In this document: positions 3,491 through 52,798 of the stretch, one piece after another | How the letters are laid out: every line of letters starts with the position of its first letter | How positions within the stretch are numbered: the stretch's first letter is position 1 | Origin: a virus | Lineage: Duplodnaviria > Heunggongvirae > Uroviricota > Caudoviricetes | DNA length: 64,000 nt | Direction: 5' to 3' (one strand) | IMG/VR virus record: IMGVR_UViG_3300043449_002776 | The notes under the pieces: generated by a model | What the model was told of the DNA's origin: nothing | Databases searched by the model: none | The model's input: only the letters and a program-made list of their open reading frames with translations | Translations under genes and position numbers: made by a program

Positions 3491-4042
3491 ATGAATACTA
3501 CACAAGAACTTGTGTTAAAATACGTACCTTTAGCCAATAAAATGGCCTATCAGAAGAAAAAAAGTCTTCCAAAATTTGTTGATGTTGAAGACCTGAAGTC
3601 AGCGGCCTATCTTGGTTTGGTTGAAGCTGCAAACAGATTCAATCCAAATCTTGGAATTGCATTTACCACGTTTGCTTATCCTAGAATTTTCGGGGCAATA
3701 CATGATTACCTTAGAGAACAAGGGTGGTTTAAACGGGGCGATTCAACTCCTATGATGAGCTTAGATTCATCTTCTGATGATAAGGAATATGCTTTGAAGG
3801 ATTTGATTTCTTCAAAAATTGACAGCAAAATCGATGAAAGCTTAGAGGTTGTAACACTTGATTTCGACGATCAAGCTAAAGATATATTTAAACATTATTT
3901 TGTCGAAGAGTATTCGATGAAAGAAGTTGGAGATATGATAGGCTTGTCTGAAAGTAGAGTAAGTCAATTGATTAAACTTTACAAAGGCAAAATCAAGGAA
4001 AAATGGTCTCGACCCTTATTGATTGAAGAACTTGCTGCATAA
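3491..4042 (+). CDS. RNA polymerase sigma factor, sigma-70 family (phage-encoded)
   Basis: Region-2-like YLGLVEAANRFNPNLGIAFTTFAYPRIFGAIHDYLRE and C-terminal region-4-like helix-turn-helix (MKEVGDMIGLSESRVSQLIK). Confidence 0.7.
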   Translation: MNTTQELVLKYVPLANKMAYQKKKSLPKFVDVEDLKSAAYLGLVEAANRFNPNLGIAFTTFAYPRIFGAIHDYLREQGWFKRGDSTPMMSLDSSSDDKEYALKDLISSKIDSKIDESLEVVTLDFDDQAKDIFKHYFVEEYSMKEVGDMIGLSESRVSQLIKLYKGKIKEKWSRPLLIEELAA

Positions 4043-19686: not shown

Positions 19687-19812
19687 TTGGGCAGGTAGCT
19701 CAGTGGTGTTTCCAACAGTAATGTTGGAAACTTCGGCGGGATGCAAGTTCAGTCGTACAGAGCATTCTCCTGAAAAGGAGAAGGGTCGCTGGTTCGAGTC
19801 CAGCCCTGCCCA
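19687..19812 (+). tRNA. tRNA-Phe (anticodon GAA) with about 52-nt insertion in the D-loop
   Basis: Perfect 7-bp acceptor GGGCAGG/CCTGCCC, D-stem GCTC...GAGC split by insertion, anticodon loop CTGAAAA, T-arm GCTGG TTCGAGT CCAGC. Confidence 0.45.
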
Positions 19813-19889
19813 CTTGGCGGAATGACGTTGTGGTTTACATCAAAAGTTGTTTGAAGAACAAACTACAACAACCTTTGTCCGCCAAATAC

Positions 19890-19985
19890 GCCGAATAGTT
19901 TAAGGGCAAAACACTCGGGAAGGTTATCGAGGCAACTCGGTGGACGCCGGGGGAATTGGAGGTTCGAATCCTTCATTCGGCACTA
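19890..19985 (+). tRNA. tRNA, long (96 nt), isotype undetermined
   Basis: Acceptor GCCGAAT/ATTCGGC, T-arm GGAGG TTCGAAT CCTTC; interior contains extra hairpin CGAG GCAA CTCG. Confidence 0.4.
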
Positions 19986-32298: not shown

Positions 32299-32375
32299 CT
32301 TGAGAGAATGCTAGTTGGGATTACATCTTTTTGGTAGAAAAACATCTCAACAATTTTTTTGTCTCTCATTTTTAT

Positions 32376-32492
32376 GGTGGCTGTGATGTAATGGGCCTCT
32401 TAAGTCAAAGTGCGTAGCTTTGTCGGTAAGTTGGACGGAAAGCATCAGATACTGTGACTATCTGAGTGTAGGTTCGAATCCTACCAGCCTCC
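32376..32492 (+). tRNA. second tRNA-His (GTG)-like gene interrupted by about 45-nt insertion within the D-loop
   Basis: G-1 + acceptor GTGGCTG / CAGCCTC + C73; D-stem ATG...CAT separated by insertion; anticodon stem AGATA/TATCT loop CTGTGAC; T-arm GTAGG TTCGAAT CCTAC. Confidence 0.4.
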
Positions 32493-32588
32493 CTTTAGGA
32501 ATTTTAGTCTCTAGCAGGAATTGAAATGTGTGCTTTTGTTAATAGTCGCACTCGTATATACAGGAAACTGTAAAGGTGTGAGCATTGA

Positions 32589-34976: not shown

Positions 34977-35107
34977 TTCGACGTAGCTCAGTGGTAGAGC
35001 ACCTAAAAATAGTCTTTTCACTACTTGTCTGCGAATTAGCAGAATGATAGAAAGGATTACATCGCATTCGGAGCGGGTGGTCGTTGGTTCGAATCCAACC
35101 GTCGATA
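34977..35107 (+). tRNA. tRNA-Arg (TCG) interrupted by a conserved 59-nt insertion between position 26 and the anticodon stem
   Basis: 5' part TTCGACG TA GCTC AGTGGTA GAGC A; insertion 35002-35060 ending in GAATGATAGAAAGGATTAC; 3' part ATCGC ATTCGGA GCGGG + V + GTTGG TTCGAAT CCAAC + CGTCGAT; removing insertion gives a 72-nt cloverleaf. Confidence 0.45.
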
Positions 35108-35153: not shown

Positions 35154-35283
35154 CTCGGCGTAGCTTAATGGCTAAAGCACTAAAAATAGTCTTTTCAATC
35201 TTTGTCTGCGAATTTGCAGAATGTCAGAAAGGATTACATCACCTGTTAAGTGAGGGATGTTGGTTCGAATCCAGCCGCCGAGG
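35154..35283 (+). tRNA. tRNA-Asn (GTT) interrupted by the same conserved 58-nt insertion at position 26/27
   Basis: Perfect 7-bp acceptor CTCGGCG/CGCCGAG; insertion 35180-35237 about 90% identical to that in 34977-35107; anticodon arm ATCAC CTGTTAA GTGAG follows motif. Confidence 0.45.
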
Positions 35284-35461
35284 CATAATTCAACGGGATT
35301 ACATCTCGGTATGAACGAGAACTCCTTCACAGGTCGTAGGGGAGTTTTGAGTCGCCATTGACACGACGACGGTGGATATGGTTGTGCCTGTTTATGGCAT
35401 ACTCAAAAGTAGGTGCAAGCGTAGGCATACGTTCTAATCCTGCTAGTTTCGTTGAATTTAT

Positions 35462-37385: not shown

Positions 37386-37670
37386 TAAAATCTTTGAGTC
37401 TGTTAGGCAGATTCATTTTATGAGTTCGTGGCAGACTGGGAAATGCACCTGTCTCTTAAACAGGACTATGCGAGATCGTACCTCGCCGGACTCACTTTCT
37501 TAAGTTTTCCTTTTCAGAGCCTAGTATCTCTTGAAAGTAAGGCTATAATTCTTGGACAATATTTTTGTCGGGTTGGACTTTTTCATGGAGGTTTGAGATG
37601 TGGTGTCTTGAAACAATCGTCGCTTTGAATCAAAAAGTCTGTGAATTTTCTAAGGAAGGCAAATCCTTAA

Positions 37671-38149: not shown

Positions 38150-38223
38150 GCTCCTATAGCTCAACTGGATAGAGCAACAGCCTTCTAAGCTGTAGGTTGC
38201 AGGTTCGAGTCCTGCTGGGAGTA
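38150..38223 (+). tRNA. tRNA-Arg (TCT)
   Basis: Acceptor GCTCCTA/TGGGAGT; D GCTC AACTGGATA GAGC; anticodon ACAGC CTTCTAA GCTGT. Confidence 0.8.
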
Positions 38224-49956: not shown

Positions 49957-50226
49957 GGGTCATTAGCTCAATGGTTAGAGCAACGGACTTCAATAGGAGT
50001 GCTTAGAGGGAAACCTCTAATGTAGAACCTCTCAAATTCGGTGAACGCTTAACTGCCAATACCGAGCCAAGCCTGTTGATCAGGAAGGTGTAGAGACTTG
50101 ACGGGAGGCACCTAAAACCACAAGGTTATGGTGAAGGTAAAGTCCAGACCACAAACTGCAAGGGTAACGAAAGTTATAGTGGTAAAGTTAATCCGTAGGT
50201 TGTAGGTTCGAGTCCTACATGGCCCA
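49957..50226 (+). tRNA. tRNA (probably Lys, TTT) interrupted by about 197-nt group-I-like intron (49991-50187) in the anticodon loop
   Basis: 5' exon GGGTCAT TA GCTC AATGGTTA GAGC A ACGGA CTT; 3' exon TTAA TCCGT AGGTT GTAGG TTCGAGT CCTAC ATGGCCC; exon ends in T and intron ends in G as for group I; intron has R/S-like elements GTAGAGACTTGA and AAGTTATAGTGG. Confidence 0.5.
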
Positions 50227-50943
50227 TTTTTTTTTGCTCCAGTAACCAACTGGTGGTTTGCTGATTCCATACTTTTCACACCAGCCTTGAATTGCTTTGT
50301 CAGTCACTCCATATATTTTGGCGATATGGATGGTTGGTATTTCCCAAATCATCTTTTGAAGTGTGGCCTTGTCAGGCCAAACAACTTTTCTACGAGTAGG
50401 TCTATCAGAATTTCTTTCTTTTTTCTTTTTGATTTCTTTTTCTTTAGCTGTTCTAGTTTTTGTCATAAACGCTTCAAATTTTGCCGTAACAAATTCAGAG
50501 GTTAATGTGATTTCTGGACATTCCAAAATTTTGCTATGAATCTTTCTGTGGCAGTTACTACAAACACATACACATTTTGTAAGTTCGTTTATAAGTCCTT
50601 TTATCGATTTCATGCCAACAAATTGTGATATATTTTTGTCTTTTTGGCCATCTTTGTGGTGAAAATCTAAACAAGCCGGTTCTTTTTCATCACATATACT
50701 GCAACCCAATTCTGCTTTCAAATCTCTAACCGCAATTTGTAAAAGATGTTTTTTCTTTTTGTTGTAGCTGTGGATACGTGTTGATGTATTTTCTTTATTT
50801 TTGTTTTTTTGATACCAATCTTTTGCATTTTGATTTGCACAACTTTTGCACCAGCTATGATATCCAGTTTTACTTTTTGGGTTTTTATTAAACTCTGATT
50901 CATTTTTTGAATAACCGCAATTAGCACATTTTACTTTACACAT
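50215..50943 (-). CDS. HNH homing endonuclease
   Basis: HNH motif DFHHKDGQKDKN...CVCSNCHRKIH; zinc-finger N-terminus; C-terminal HTH-like. Confidence 0.75.
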   Translation of the reverse strand: MCKVKCANCGYSKNESEFNKNPKSKTGYHSWCKSCANQNAKDWYQKNKNKENTSTRIHSYNKKKKHLLQIAVRDLKAELGCSICDEKEPACLDFHHKDGQKDKNISQFVGMKSIKGLINELTKCVCVCSNCHRKIHSKILECPEITLTSEFVTAKFEAFMTKTRTAKEKEIKKKKERNSDRPTRRKVVWPDKATLQKMIWEIPTIHIAKIYGVTDKAIQGWCEKYGISKPPVGYWSKKKWAM

Positions 50944-50993
50944 ATATACCTCTAGTCGTATATATGTGTACTAATTAAAAATTTTTTAAAAAC

Positions 50994-51034
50994 TTTTAAC
51001 TCCGAGGTTGTAGGTTCAAGTCCTACTGGGGGCA
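50994..51034 (+). pseudogene. duplicated tRNA 3'-exon fragment (anticodon-stem 3' strand + V + T-arm + acceptor 3')
   Basis: TTTTAACTCCGAGGTTGTAGGTTCAAGTCCTACTGGGGGCA is about 80% identical to 3' exon of tRNA at 50188-50226; no 5' half upstream. Confidence 0.5.
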
Positions 51035-51044
51035 CTTAAGTTTT

Positions 51045-51776
51045 CTAAATATGGCCGACCTCATGATGGTATTTTTCATCCACAATGATTGAGTTTGGCA
51101 AATTAGATAAATTCTCGGCCTGAGAGCTTATTGGTTCAATCCATCTTTTGAAAGTGTAAACTTTCGAAGACCCGCCTAAGAACATACACCACCAAGCAAA
51201 CGTGCTATTTGACAATATGACTTTGTCAAATGACATAAGATTATAAAAGTCATTTGTTGCATTTGCCGAAATATTCTTAATCTTGTATTTTCTTTGTAAA
51301 TTACGAATGTATATGTTTTTAGGATCATCAGTAATTAAATAGATTTCCTCAAAGTTTTCATTTTCAAGTATGTTTTTGTAATAATCGGGATGTATGATCC
51401 AATTGTAGCTTTTATAATCACCCAACCTAACAGACAGACAGATGTCTTTTTTATTGGTTGCGATATTTGATCGATTATATATGAAAAAGTTTTTTATGAC
51501 ATCTTGCTTGTGTTTGTAAAAACCAAATTTTTGAAAGTAACCGTCTAGCAAGTAGGTTGATTCTTTCAAGTCACTTGGGAATTTAAAAAAATCATCTCTC
51601 AATATAATTGGTTGTGTATCAAAAGACTGGGTCGTCGAACACTCGGTAGTGCTCAGTATTTGATTTTTGGGAAGATCACTAGCTAATTTATAATTGAATT
51701 TTTCAGCTAACATTCTAGCAAAAGCATACTGGAATAAGTGATTTCCGAAGTTCCCTAAATATTTTATTTTGATCAT
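51045..51776 (-). CDS. alpha-1,2-fucosyltransferase-like glycosyltransferase (GT11)
   Basis: N-terminal GNFGNHLFQYAFA matches GT11 GxxGNxxFQYA motif. Confidence 0.6.
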   Translation of the reverse strand: MIKIKYLGNFGNHLFQYAFARMLAEKFNYKLASDLPKNQILSTTECSTTQSFDTQPIILRDDFFKFPSDLKESTYLLDGYFQKFGFYKHKQDVIKNFFIYNRSNIATNKKDICLSVRLGDYKSYNWIIHPDYYKNILENENFEEIYLITDDPKNIYIRNLQRKYKIKNISANATNDFYNLMSFDKVILSNSTFAWWCMFLGGSSKVYTFKRWIEPISSQAENLSNLPNSIIVDEKYHHEVGHI

Positions 51777-51810
51777 ATCTGATTCATCCTGTTAATCACT
51801 CTTATAACAT

Positions 51811-52356
51811 ATGATCAAGAATGAAATTCAAACAATTGCTGGTTCGTATATTATCGAAATAGATCGTTATGACGATGATCGAGGGTTTTTCCAAGAGATA
51901 TTTTCAACAACTCGATACAGCCCTGAGTTTCCTGAAATAGCTCAAATTAACGTAAGTTGCTCAAACAAAAATGTGATTCGTGGTTTGCACGTTGCACCTT
52001 TCGCAAAACTTTGCACATGTATAAGAGGTAGCTTGTTTGATGTAGTGGCCGATGTAAGGAAAGGCAGTCCAACTTTCGGAAATTGGTTTGGTTTATGGTT
52101 AACAGAAAGCAATCGAAAACAGCTTTTTGTTCCCAATGGCTGTGCTCATGGTTTTTACTCAGCCGAAGACAACACAATTCTTTGCTATCAACAAGATGGT
52201 CTATACAGTCCTAAATTTGAGTGTGAGATTCATTTCCAAGATCCCACATTGGGCATATCTTGGCCTGCTGCCGATAATTACATTGTTTCGGCCAAAGATC
52301 AGGCGGCAAGAGATTTAAATGCCGCTCTGCAATTTCTAGACAAGAACCACATCTAG
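51811..52356 (+). CDS. rmlC: dTDP-4-dehydrorhamnose 3,5-epimerase
   Basis: RGLHVAPF...GSLFDVVADVRKGSPTFGNWFG...NGCAHGFY closely matches RmlC cupin signature. Confidence 0.85.
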   Translation: MIKNEIQTIAGSYIIEIDRYDDDRGFFQEIFSTTRYSPEFPEIAQINVSCSNKNVIRGLHVAPFAKLCTCIRGSLFDVVADVRKGSPTFGNWFGLWLTESNRKQLFVPNGCAHGFYSAEDNTILCYQQDGLYSPKFECEIHFQDPTLGISWPAADNYIVSAKDQAARDLNAALQFLDKNHI

Positions 52357-52447
52357 ATTTGCCTTCCTACAAACATCTGTAGGTCAAATGTTCTAATTCA
52401 ATAAATCAAAAAAGTCTTTCGTCTCGCTAAATAAAACGAGGTGAAAA

Positions 52448-52798
52448 ATGAAAAACTGGAACGAATTTTTGGCATCTAAACAAACCTTGTCTGAAGTGGC
52501 CCCGCCGCCACCTCCGCCGCCGCCGCCGCCACCTCCGCCGCCGCCACCTCCGCCGCAACGGTCTCCTTTGCCAAAACCTGATGAGCGATTTTTACCGATT
52601 CCTCAGAGTGGAGCACTGGATTTAATAAAGGTTTTGCAAGAGATTTATAATAAAATTGGAGAGACGGAATCCATTTTGAAAACATTTGGAACCATGTATT
52701 CGCCAGAAGAATATAAAGACATGGCCAAGGGGCCTTGTATTGAGGCAAAAACAAAATTAGCGGAAGTTCTCAAGAAGCTAAGAGAAACTTACAGATAG
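52448..52798 (+). CDS. proline-rich hypothetical protein (19-residue poly-Pro tract)
   Basis: ORF encoding PPPPPPPPPPPPPPPPPPP from CCGCCGCCACCTCCG tandem repeats. Confidence 0.4.
   Translation: MKNWNEFLASKQTLSEVAPPPPPPPPPPPPPPPPPPQRSPLPKPDERFLPIPQSGALDLIKVLQEIYNKIGETESILKTFGTMYSPEEYKDMAKGPCIEAKTKLAEVLKKLRETYR

Follow-up and report, generated by a model that had tools for sequence, protein, structure and literature searches.

Why does a phage genome hold a tRNA gene that is interrupted in its anticodon loop, overlapped at its 3' end by an endonuclease gene on the opposite strand, and followed, beyond that gene, by a piece of yet another tRNA? The locus that raises this question lies at 49957-51034 of a stretch of 64,000 nucleotides (nt) from the IMG/VR virus record IMGVR_UViG_3300043449_002776 (Caudoviricetes). 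This whole stretch is called the window here, and positions given without a contig name are its own, on the plus strand unless stated otherwise. The three parts of the locus are a tRNA-Lys(UUU) gene with a group I intron, a gene for an HNH endonuclease, and a 5'-less tRNA remnant. In the reading that we favor, with a probability of roughly 0.6, the HNH protein is a free-standing homing endonuclease that carries the tRNA, the intron and its own gene into intron-less alleles, and the remnant is the displaced 3' half of such an allele.

The tRNA itself is the natural place to start. With introns allowed, ARAGORN reads 49957-50226 as a tRNA-Lys(UUU) gene in which an intron of 197 nt separates nt 34 from nt 35. 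Both pairings on which a preliminary description of this DNA had built, an acceptor pair and an anticodon stem about 197 nt apart, are present: GGGTCAT (49957-49963) with ATGGCCC (50219-50225), and ACGGA (49983-49987) with TCCGT (50192-50196). The 5' exon (49957-49990, nt 1-34; GGGTCAT TA GCTC AATGGTTA GAGC A ACGGA CTT) holds the 5' strand of the acceptor stem, the D arm, the 5' strand of the anticodon stem and C32, U33 and U34. The 3' exon (50188-50226, nt 35-73; TTAA TCCGT AGGTT GTAGG TTCGAGT CCTAC ATGGCCC A) has no encoded CCA. Joined, the exons form a canonical 73-nt cloverleaf with discriminator A73 and the loop CUUUUAA, and the predicted spliced junction reads ACGGACUU/UUAAUCCGU.

Would other exon boundaries give another product? 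When 143 alternative junction pairs were spliced in silico, 49990/50188 alone combined a 7-nt loop with a 5' exon ending in U and an intron ending in G. The junction test thus agrees with ARAGORN in intron mode on tRNA-Lys(UUU) with an intron at 34/35, the product first proposed. Other junctions offer Asn GUU, Arg UCU or opal-suppressor UCA anticodons, and these were discarded, since they conflict with the U-G and terminal-G rules and with the conserved P1 helix described below. Default ARAGORN and the Rfam tRNA model, which list 27-28 tRNAs in the window, both miss the split gene. It had been taken for the only tRNA-Lys present; default ARAGORN finds a tRNA-Lys(CUU) at 37422-37495, yet the intron-bearing gene is still the sole UUU isoacceptor found in the window. 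An intact intron-less Lys(UUU) anticodon stem-loop was not found elsewhere in the window either.

As for the origin of this allele, two contig scans covering 185,579 species genomes of bacteria and archaea gave no match to its exon sequence, and therefore it is not a recent capture from a sequenced host. A search of IMG/VR for intron-less alleles gave 23 phage tRNA-Lys genes that share the anticodon arm; none of them shares the acceptor or T arms, and none adjoins an HNH gene. The 5' exon is 100% identical with that of contig L009 and 94% identical with that of contig L011, two diverged relatives that recur throughout this account.

Is the insert a group I intron? The preliminary description had suggested the Rfam model as a check on 49991-50187, the 197 nt of an IC3-like intron without an open reading frame (ORF). 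The model (RF00028, Intron_gpI) matches 49981-50162 over its full length with 50.6 bits, against a gathering score of 50 (E = 6.8e-10 in the whole window, 1.5e-11 in a local search), and the core helices can be located. The intron of L011 scores 57.5 bits, and that of L009 lies below the threshold. Because the score in the window is marginal, the fold was tested independently.

The predicted fold is complete. P1 (49987-49991/49996-50000) holds the splice-site wobble U49990-G49997, and P2 (50003-09/50014-20) has a GAAA loop. P3 (50028-33/50103-08), P4 (50038-43/50060-65), P5 (50047-48/50055-56) and P6 (50066-68/50087-89, plus CCUG/CAGG) follow, as do P7 (50093,50095-98/50141-45), P8 (50109-12/50130-33), P9 (50149-52/50179-82) and the terminal intron G, G50187. 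The R element had been named correctly from the start, but the S element had not: AAGTTATAGTGG (50171-50182) corresponds to the 3' strands of P9b and P9, and S, the 3' strand of P7, is AAGGTAAAGTCC at about 50134-50145, where AGUC (50141-44) pairs with GACU (50095-98).

Nine homologous sequences were aligned (alignment A3), and RNAalifold recovered from them the anticodon stem, P1, P2, P3, P4, P5, P6, P8 and P9; P7 was then added as a pseudoknot. Standard pairs fill 99.0% of the 494 pair cells, against a mean of 85.5% after shuffling, and none of 500 shuffles reached as high. Sliding the 3' partners by 1-3 columns brings pairing down to 30-46%. Changes on both sides of a pair, of the compensatory kind, occur in 23 of 56 pairs, and P7 is invariant. 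The U-G wobble of P1 is kept in all nine homologues, the last intron base is G in every row, and the first base of the intron changes in step with the guide sequence, as c-G in Lys introns and as a-U in Leu introns. Folding of the precursor gave z = -3.2 relative to shuffles.

Where else does this intron occur? In a phage collection, blastn detected homologous stretches in LR756501, Atu_ph07 and Daredevil, and also in two pelagiphage-like records. LR756501, a 735-kb uncultured phage, is 77.8% identical over 189 nt. Intron-aware ARAGORN places there a tRNA-Leu(UAA) with a 205-nt intron (L001:1455-1745), in the 490-kb jumbo Agrobacterium phage Atu_ph07 a tRNA-Leu(UAA) with a 278-nt intron (L003:1452-1813), and in Gordonia phage Daredevil (NC_048021) a tRNA-Lys(UUU) with a 238-nt intron (L004:1340-1651). 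All three introns sit at 34/35, all are unannotated, and all fall under the Rfam threshold though they are clearly homologous. IMG/VR adds two tRNA-Leu(UAA) genes, likewise unannotated, that carry a group I intron at 34/35 (L090:2904-3247 and L094:857-1138); the introns of L090 and L094/L095 score 58.7-63.1 bits with Rfam and lie 190-250 nt from an HNH gene. Bacteria have comparable introns. Nakagawa et al. 2026 list tRNA-Lys(TTT) introns of class IC3 at 34/35 in Actinomycetota, and their Table S5 also has Acidobacteriota tRNA-Leu(TAA) introns at the same site (PMC13011429). The Actinomycetota introns open as the window intron does (...ACTT/caaca.aataggagcgcc), and direct alignment with tRNA-Lys and tRNA-Leu introns labeled IC3 gives a mean column identity of 69%. 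Judged by this alignment with IC3-labeled introns rather than by a subgroup model, the window intron would belong to the IC3 family of bacterial tRNA-Leu(UAA)/tRNA-Lys(UUU) introns, and at the level of sequence it is homologous to the tRNA-Leu introns at the classic tRNA-Leu(UAA) site.

A few observations stand beside these homologues. In Pelagibacter phages HTVC120P (L002:1281-2455) and KM23-C739 (L005:1127-2335) the capsid gene is annotated as two coding sequences, split by intron-like DNA, and related compact introns therefore occur in pelagiphage capsid genes as well; KM23-C739 has two Rfam group I matches, of 78 and 76.9 bits. A P1-pattern search of IMG/VR produced only two candidate intron-bearing relatives, L128 and L129, which were discarded as chance matches in coding DNA. 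As for Daredevil, it integrates into tRNA-Lys-TTT, is said to encode no tRNA of its own, and makes clear plaques (PMC10865867). Its record also holds, beside an integrase gene, an isolated 17-nt intron-less copy of the anticodon stem-loop (ACGGACTTTTAATCCGC, L004:1170-1186), 155 nt from the tRNA-Lys and probably an attP core.

Does the intron still splice? The gene might be a decaying pseudogene whose intron has lost this ability and whose tRNA is no longer made. An Rfam score just at the cut-off, together with sub-threshold homologues in L009, LR756501, Atu_ph07 and Daredevil, would fit such decay, and so would the clear plaques of Daredevil, which behaves as if without a working tRNA-Lys (PMC10865867). 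Decay is nevertheless very improbable: no core helix is broken, the cloverleaf is complete, both the U-G wobble and the terminal G are kept, the changes among relatives are compensatory, and exons and intron are far more conserved than the synonymous sites of the neighboring gene. The intron is 91.5% identical with that of L009 and 86.6% with that of L011, while synonymous divergence (dS) of the HNH gene from L009 has reached 0.79.

The second component is this neighboring gene, at 50215-50943 on the minus strand. It encodes 242 amino acids (aa) and is a free-standing HNH (His-Me finger) endonuclease gene by its match to PHROG 2255 'HNH endonuclease' (E = 1.2e-25), as first described; weaker matches are to endonuclease VII families. 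The same description had the ORF start inside the 3' end of the tRNA on the opposite strand. The strand and the overlap are right, but the ORF ends there: the start codon is at 50943 and the stop at 50215-50217, and therefore its last 12 nt, stop included, are antisense to tRNA positions 62-73. From the stop codon to the 3' splice site of the intron there are 28 nt. The 197-nt intron is itself too small for an endonuclease ORF.

In the protein, a Cys4 zinc ribbon at the N-terminus precedes the HNH core (CLDFHH...N...CSNCHRKIH), and the C-terminal part is a helix-turn-helix-like domain, whose segment IAKxYGVSDKAVxKWCKKY has a weak helix-turn-helix score. Residues H95, H96, N130, H132, H136, C81, C84, C128 and C131 are invariant in 13 homologues (alignment A2), as are the cysteines of the zinc ribbon and the motifs CLDFHH and CSNCHRKIH throughout. 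The AF2 model has a pLDDT of 85; with the whole model, Foldseek found only weak local matches in the PDB, LuxR/Fis-type helix-turn-helix domains among them. The match to the beta-beta-alpha-Me enzyme Hpy99I is likewise local (39 columns, probability 0.75, E = 3.3), and a profile search of PDB sequences gave E-values of 0.2 or worse. Relative to the 76%-identical orthologue in L009, the ratio of nonsynonymous to synonymous divergence (dN/dS) is 0.18 at the dS given above; the gene has therefore been kept by purifying selection.

Upstream of the HNH start, at 50944-50991 on the minus strand, lie a ribosome-binding site (AGAGG) and an AT-rich imperfect palindrome (TTAAAAGTTTTTAAAAAATTTTTAA). A comparable palindrome (TTAAAAGTTTTT.AAAAAYTTTTAA) is found 40-65 nt 5' of the HNH start in L009 (~3930-3960) and L101 (~1925-1955), and the palindrome arms resemble the anticodon loop and 3' stem of tRNA-Lys (CTTTTAATCC). 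To judge from the letters, it might act as promoter or operator, or mimic a target; a promoter and terminator scan gave nothing over shuffled expectation.

Could the junction of HNH gene and fragment be an error of assembly? The Logan contigs L007 and L008, which are independent assemblies, are identical to the window over 50197-52530 and 50192-51162, and therefore the arrangement is not an assembly artefact of the window. L007 and L008 have 0 mismatches to it, and L006, a third Logan contig, encodes the identical HNH protein as they do; all three stop 4-9 nt 3' of the 3' splice site. This common break suggests that the assembly graph branches right within the anticodon arm, because of a repeat or of allelic heterogeneity. 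A different kind of artefact touches the HNH ORF as called in L011:4001-4900 (P0002), which is stretched at both ends through antisense tRNA sequence: its N-terminal extension is the remnant, and its C-terminal one the whole 3' exon plus 13 nt of the intron. Peptides such as VPPAGLEPALY in P0002 are typical artefacts of translated tRNA.

The third component is the most unusual in appearance. It had been described as a duplicated 3' exon, about 80% identical, at 50994-51034. It is indeed a 3' fragment of a tRNA without its 5' part, but it is not an exon copy: it starts at 50992/50993 and spans the splice junction, covering part of the 5'-exon side as well. The sequence at 50992-51034, A CTTTTAA CTCCG AGGTT GTAGG TTCAAGT CCTAC TGGGGGC A, follows the layout of tRNA positions 31-73, from A31 to A73, with the loop CTTTTAA, the stem strand CTCCG, the variable loop, a complete T arm, the acceptor 3' strand TGGGGGC and A73. 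Its alignment to the spliced tRNA scores 54, against a null maximum of 27 in 300 shuffles, and in the T arm it fits exactly a 21-nt pattern for which 0.00 chance occurrences are expected. Since the junction ACTT/TTAA is uninterrupted, the remnant descends from an intron-less allele of tRNA-Lys(UUU), truncated 4-5 nt 5' of the intron site. A matching 5' half (GCCCCCA...CGGAG) was looked for in the window and not found, which led to rejection of the idea of a split or trans-spliced tRNA.

Whose tRNA was it? A pattern search with the last 25 nt of the remnant found intact phage tRNA-Lys(UUU) genes (L213, L227, L250 and others) whose 3' 27 nt are identical to it. Identity is 37/42 to the tRNA-Lys(UUU) at L213:8686-8758 and 33/42 to the adjacent 3' exon region. 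The remnant, being closer to tRNA-Lys genes of other phages, is therefore not a copy of the adjacent exon but a piece of a different tRNA-Lys(UUU) lineage.

Orthologous remnants, statistically significant as in the window, are present in L009 and L011. That of L011 begins at G30, so that the breaks in the window and in L011 both fall 4-5 nt from the intron insertion site; that of L009 consists of the T arm and acceptor part, with an apparent loop part (TTTTAATCC) about 170 nt away. At L099 and L101, where the HNH gene converges on an intron-less tRNA, there is no significant remnant. Does the fragment have a function of its own? A minihelix of T arm and acceptor strand might serve as an RNA processing or termination signal, as a decoy, or as an operator for the HNH protein. 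In its favor, T arm and acceptor strand are nearly unchanged between the window and L009 (22 of 23 aligned columns alike) despite the divergence of the HNH genes, the L011 remnant has a compensatory pair in its T stem (GTAGG/CCTAC versus GCAGG/CCTGC), and several lineages have an AT-rich palindrome resembling the anticodon loop between remnant and HNH start. We consider such a function improbable. Only three sequences are on hand; the anticodon-stem strand differs at every position between the window and L011; the L009 remnant is split; and a compensatory pair is equally expected from capture of a functional tRNA or from conversion by another tRNA. The window has a tRNA-Arg with a GCAGG/CCTGC T arm at 38195-38215.

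Another explanation borrows from integrases. The fragment may be the core of an attachment (att) site, either an attP core that includes the 3' half of a tRNA-Lys(UUU) from the host, or an attR created when an element integrated site-specifically into the tRNA gene of the phage. Fragments of the same extent (42-45 nt, ending GTAGGTTCGAGTCCTACTGGGGGCA) are the terminal repeats of many ~20-kb elements in bacterial tRNA-Lys(UUU) genes, and actinophages use such cores at tRNA-Lys(UUU) (PMC10865867). Little credence can be given to this possibility here, where nothing but the HNH gene separates the fragment from the intact tRNA. Of the 34 window ORFs scanned with PHROGs and Pfam, which included all those of at least 280 aa, none matched an integrase family, and no integrase was found beside or between tRNA and remnant. 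Moreover, the gene content is that of a large lytic-type phage (sigma factor, NAD-dependent ligase, ~30 tRNAs), and the remnant is conserved along with the HNH gene in three genomes.

How close is the tie between this HNH family and tRNA genes? A large protein search gave 95 homologues, and genomic contexts were fetched for seven full-length ones; the relatives of the window come from JGI, ENA and Logan metagenome assemblies. The closest (P0001, 76% identity, L009/L010) is syntenic with the window and has a tRNA-Lys(UUU) with a 200-nt intron, convergent with the HNH gene and overlapping its 3' end. The same arrangement, with a 197-nt intron, recurs at P0002 (63%, L011-L014). Two others, P0008 (38%, L099/L100) and P0009 (39%, L101/L102), abut a convergent, intron-less tRNA-Lys(UUU). 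At P0011 (37%, L103/L104) a tRNA-Lys(UUU) lies 52 nt upstream on the same strand. P0004 (40%, L015/L016) has a normal tRNA-Lys(UUU) 62 nt upstream and an 85-nt tRNA(UUU) with a long variable arm 2 nt downstream, and P0005 (42%, L017-L019) has such an 85-nt tRNA(UUU) immediately downstream. A tRNA(UUU) gene thus adjoins the HNH gene in all seven full-length lineages examined. Daredevil gp51, a 139-aa protein annotated as HNH, belongs to the same family (27% identity, E = 1e-17, pairwise), and its gene is convergent with the intron-bearing tRNA-Lys, about 450 nt away.

Shorter relatives tell a broader story. In IMG/VR, the family alignment picked out 79 loci; at 51 of them a tRNA lies within 350 nt, and at 31 there is one on both sides. 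The two flanking tRNAs carry the same amino acid at 11 of these 31 loci, compared with 35 of 218 control neighbor pairs without an HNH gene between them, an enrichment that is only suggestive because the loci are not independent. In L015 and L022 a tRNA-Lys(UUU) stands on both sides of the family member. Genes annotated as HNH in the tRNA regions of FelixO1-like phages, KIL1, Hena1 and Wc4 are short-form relatives too, and several of these genes overlap with annotated tRNAs. No cultured phage record matched at least 80% of the length of the window HNH protein.

Some of the neighboring tRNAs deserve mention in their own right. Genes of 82-86 nt with Lys anticodons (UUU or CUU) were found at L015:4789-4873, L017:4779-4863, L020:2267-2348, L021:908-992, L022:2368-2453 and L028:2987-3071, and several directly adjoin HNH genes. 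On inspection, those of L015 and L017 have a long, class-II-like variable arm, a shape unusual for tRNA-Lys. The Rfam tRNA model gives 43-58 bits for those of L015, L017, L022 and L028.

Presence of the HNH gene is patchy, and it is missing from 67 related loci that share ORF122. Of 72 such loci from a freshwater metagenome scan, 67 were screened, and all but the L011 contig are without tRNA and HNH gene. These loci are too divergent, at 52% identity or less, and for this reason are unfit as an empty-site control. The comparison with intron-less alleles of related phages, which the preliminary description had recommended, was therefore answered in part: intron-less tRNA(UUU) genes do stand beside diverged HNH homologues, but no close empty allele was found.

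Are the three components then merely neighbors? Intron, HNH gene and remnant might each have a separate history. The intron would be vertically inherited and immobile, the HNH protein (or domesticated nuclease) would target something else, for instance a tRNA 3' end or downstream flank, as SegB does, disrupted by its own insertion, and the remnant would be what is left of a deleted tandem tRNA-Lys. Several facts suit this account: intron-less tRNA(UUU) genes beside HNH homologues in five lineages, two of them convergent and abutting (L099, L101); complete tRNA pairs flanking family members, tRNA-HNH-tRNA being a common order, with the 11 of 31 same-amino-acid pairs noted above; and the precedent of SegB, which recognises the T-loop and cuts at tRNA 3' ends (PMC2330249). 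We find it unlikely all the same. In the window and in L011 the remnant does not end at random but close to the intron site; among convergent loci, remnants are confined to the intron-bearing clade; and the same HNH family accompanies an intron-bearing tRNA-Lys in an unrelated actinophage, Daredevil. Even if the components were independent, the intron lies within ~30-230 bp of the HNH gene and would be co-converted.

How, then, would a composite homing cassette work? The tRNA, the fold and homology of the intron, the family of the HNH protein and the purifying selection on it, its linkage to tRNA(UUU) and the origin of the remnant in another allele are established; from these we infer splicing, the activity and target of the endonuclease, and the direction and mechanism of mobility. 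For splicing, the end of the 5' exon, ACUU, would pair with the internal guide GGAGU to form P1, with U49990 and G49997 as the wobble. Exogenous guanosine would attack after U34, and the freed 3'-OH of U34 would then attack after G50187. Ligation of the exons would yield the 73-nt tRNA-Lys(UUU), to which CCA would be added.

As for mobility, the HNH family is at home in phage tRNA arrays, with a full-length subfamily specialised on tRNA(UUU) loci. During mixed infection the enzyme would most likely cut a tRNA-Lys(UUU) allele that has neither the intron nor the HNH gene, within its anticodon arm or close to it, the resident copy being protected by the intron or by sequence differences. Repair of the break off the cassette-bearing genome would copy the HNH gene together with the adjacent tRNA and intron, that is, collaborative or trans homing by co-conversion. 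The remnant would be the displaced 3' part of the invaded intron-less allele. In the founding event, the left end of the break may have recombined in or upstream of the 5' exon, while the 3' half of the recipient was joined beyond the HNH gene; the resulting order would be an intact donor tRNA with its intron, the HNH gene, and a recipient 3' half that starts near the break. From then on, the remnant could provide homology on the downstream side, which would let the intron move together with the replacement 3' exon and the HNH gene as one insertion into an anticodon loop, and each remnant would perhaps be refreshed from a functional recipient gene. Homing of this kind would explain why the remnants are tRNA-like, down to a compensatory T-stem difference, and yet have wholly different anticodon-stem strands, and why the window has no intact intron-less Lys(UUU) anticodon stem-loop open to attack. 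A further step, which we take tentatively and rate below even odds, is that the locus represents an undescribed type of mobile unit, in which a group I ribozyme travels with a replacement 3' exon and with an HNH gene that is antisense and outside the intron, and which overwrites alleles and leaves their 3' halves behind as homology arms.

What speaks for mobility, and what does not? The three-part arrangement recurs in two diverged relatives, L009 and L011. This, the seven of seven tRNA(UUU) lineages and the origin of the remnant in another allele strengthen the early proposal that the architecture reflects endonuclease-driven mobility, without proving it. Several points weigh on the other side. 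The RF00028 score of the intron is barely over its threshold, and Pfam HNH models give no match to the 242-aa protein; the fold search did not demonstrate an HNH enzyme, the predicted fold being consistent with one. The homologues in L099, L101, L103, L015 and L017 adjoin uninterrupted tRNA(UUU) genes, from which it follows that the intron is not needed for coexistence and that the target may differ from the intron site; if it were the 3' end of the tRNA or the flank, as with SegB, the intron would merely ride along. No close relative was found with an 'empty' site, that is, an intron-less and/or HNH-less tRNA-Lys at the same locus. Finally, integrase att sites have the same architecture as the remnant, running from the anticodon loop to the 3' end.

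Each component is of a known kind: IC3 tRNA introns, free-standing HNH genes in phage tRNA clusters, and partnerships of an intron with a neighboring endonuclease. The closest kin of the intron are the IC3 introns of cyanobacterial and plastid tRNA-Leu(UAA), Azoarcus tRNA-Ile and Actinomycetota tRNA-Lys(UUU) (PMC13011429). It shares with them the 34/35 site, P1 with ACUU and the U-G wobble, the P3-P9 core sequences, a size of ~200-250 nt and the lack of an ORF; unlike them, it resides in a phage genome, is richer in AT, and has an endonuclease gene directly outside.

Two partnerships offer the nearest precedents. In cyanophage S-PM2, F-CphI acts at the psbA intron site by collaborative homing, and here too an ORF-less intron in a conserved phage gene adjoins a free-standing endonuclease gene (PMC6083498); the term collaborative homing is also used in PMC3984707. 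In T4, mobE drives trans homing of the nrdB intron, whose I-TevIII is defective (PMC2790892). An intron without a working endonuclease of its own is thus paired with a free-standing one, and the same co-inheritance by break repair would be expected at the window locus. The differences are that the host gene in the window is a tRNA, that the endonuclease gene is antisense and overlaps its 3' end, that a displaced 3' fragment is kept, and that relatives of the enzyme coexist with intron-less tRNAs.

Further comparisons concern the enzyme. Like the HNH genes of FelixO1-like phages and like SegB of T4, which recognises a T-loop motif and spreads itself together with neighboring T4 tRNA genes (PMC2330249), the window HNH gene is free-standing inside a phage tRNA cluster. 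SegB is a GIY-YIG enzyme; the window enzyme is HNH, has an additional C-terminal helix-turn-helix-like domain and belongs to a subfamily tied to tRNA(UUU). An endonuclease that targets the anticodon region of a tRNA is encoded by a tRNA group I intron (ref. 105 in PMC3984707); in the window, the gene is outside the intron and on the other strand, and the anticodon arm is a presumed target. Tandem order of intact tRNA, insert and displaced copy from anticodon loop to 3' end is also seen in tRNA integrative elements and attP cores (PMC10865867), but the insert here has no integrase and is a single nuclease gene of 729 nt. According to the review by Hausner et al. 2014, the phage introns then known were all in protein-coding genes, despite the many phage tRNAs (PMC3984707). 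Within the literature searched, we found no phage tRNA gene reported to contain a group I intron, nor a description of an ORF-less tRNA intron combined with an antisense overlapping HNH gene and a retained 3' half.

As for the rest of the window, the NAD-dependent ligase, sigma factor, amidoligase, glycosyl- and sulfotransferases and ~30 tRNAs fit a large phage. There is no capsid or terminase gene in it, so the assignment to a phage rests on gene content and PHROG matches; a megablast search of 40000-64000 against the phage collection found no near match. Other tRNA calls in the window are odd. A tRNA-like gene at 35154-35284 (Rfam tRNA, 40.9 bits over 130 nt) carries ~51-57 extra nt in its anticodon arm, fewer than a group I intron needs, and its intron-mode ARAGORN call as Cys(ACA) is doubtful. 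Further odd calls lie at 19890-19983, 19689-19813, 32304-32493 and 34977-35107; several are long intron-mode ARAGORN calls beside normal tRNAs, and one odd tRNA, called with the four-base anticodon aggt, scores 34.3 bits with Rfam. At 32464-32484 there is a T arm similar to the one in the Lys gene. Lastly, an ORF at 52448-52798, between dTDP-sugar-epimerase-like and sulfotransferase-like genes, encodes 19 consecutive prolines (APPPPPPPPPPPPPPPPPPPQ).

What does the locus mean for phage biology? Phage tRNA genes do carry group I introns, as seen in the window, in LR756501, in Atu_ph07, in Daredevil and in several IMG/VR contigs. Standard annotation misses them, be it default ARAGORN, the Rfam tRNA model or, in many cases, the Rfam intron threshold; counts of phage tRNA genes are therefore too low, and conclusions that rest on the absence of a tRNA, as for Daredevil, can suffer. 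The link of an HNH subfamily to tRNA(UUU) genes, together with the kept 3' half, provides a testable case of endonuclease-driven replacement of tRNA genes between phages, and if the enzyme were specific for the tRNA-Lys anticodon arm, it would represent a new homing-endonuclease specificity. tRNA-Lys(UUU) is a frequent target of host anticodon nucleases. If the locus is indeed a mobile unit, the cassette could therefore also spread tRNA-Lys alleles between phages.

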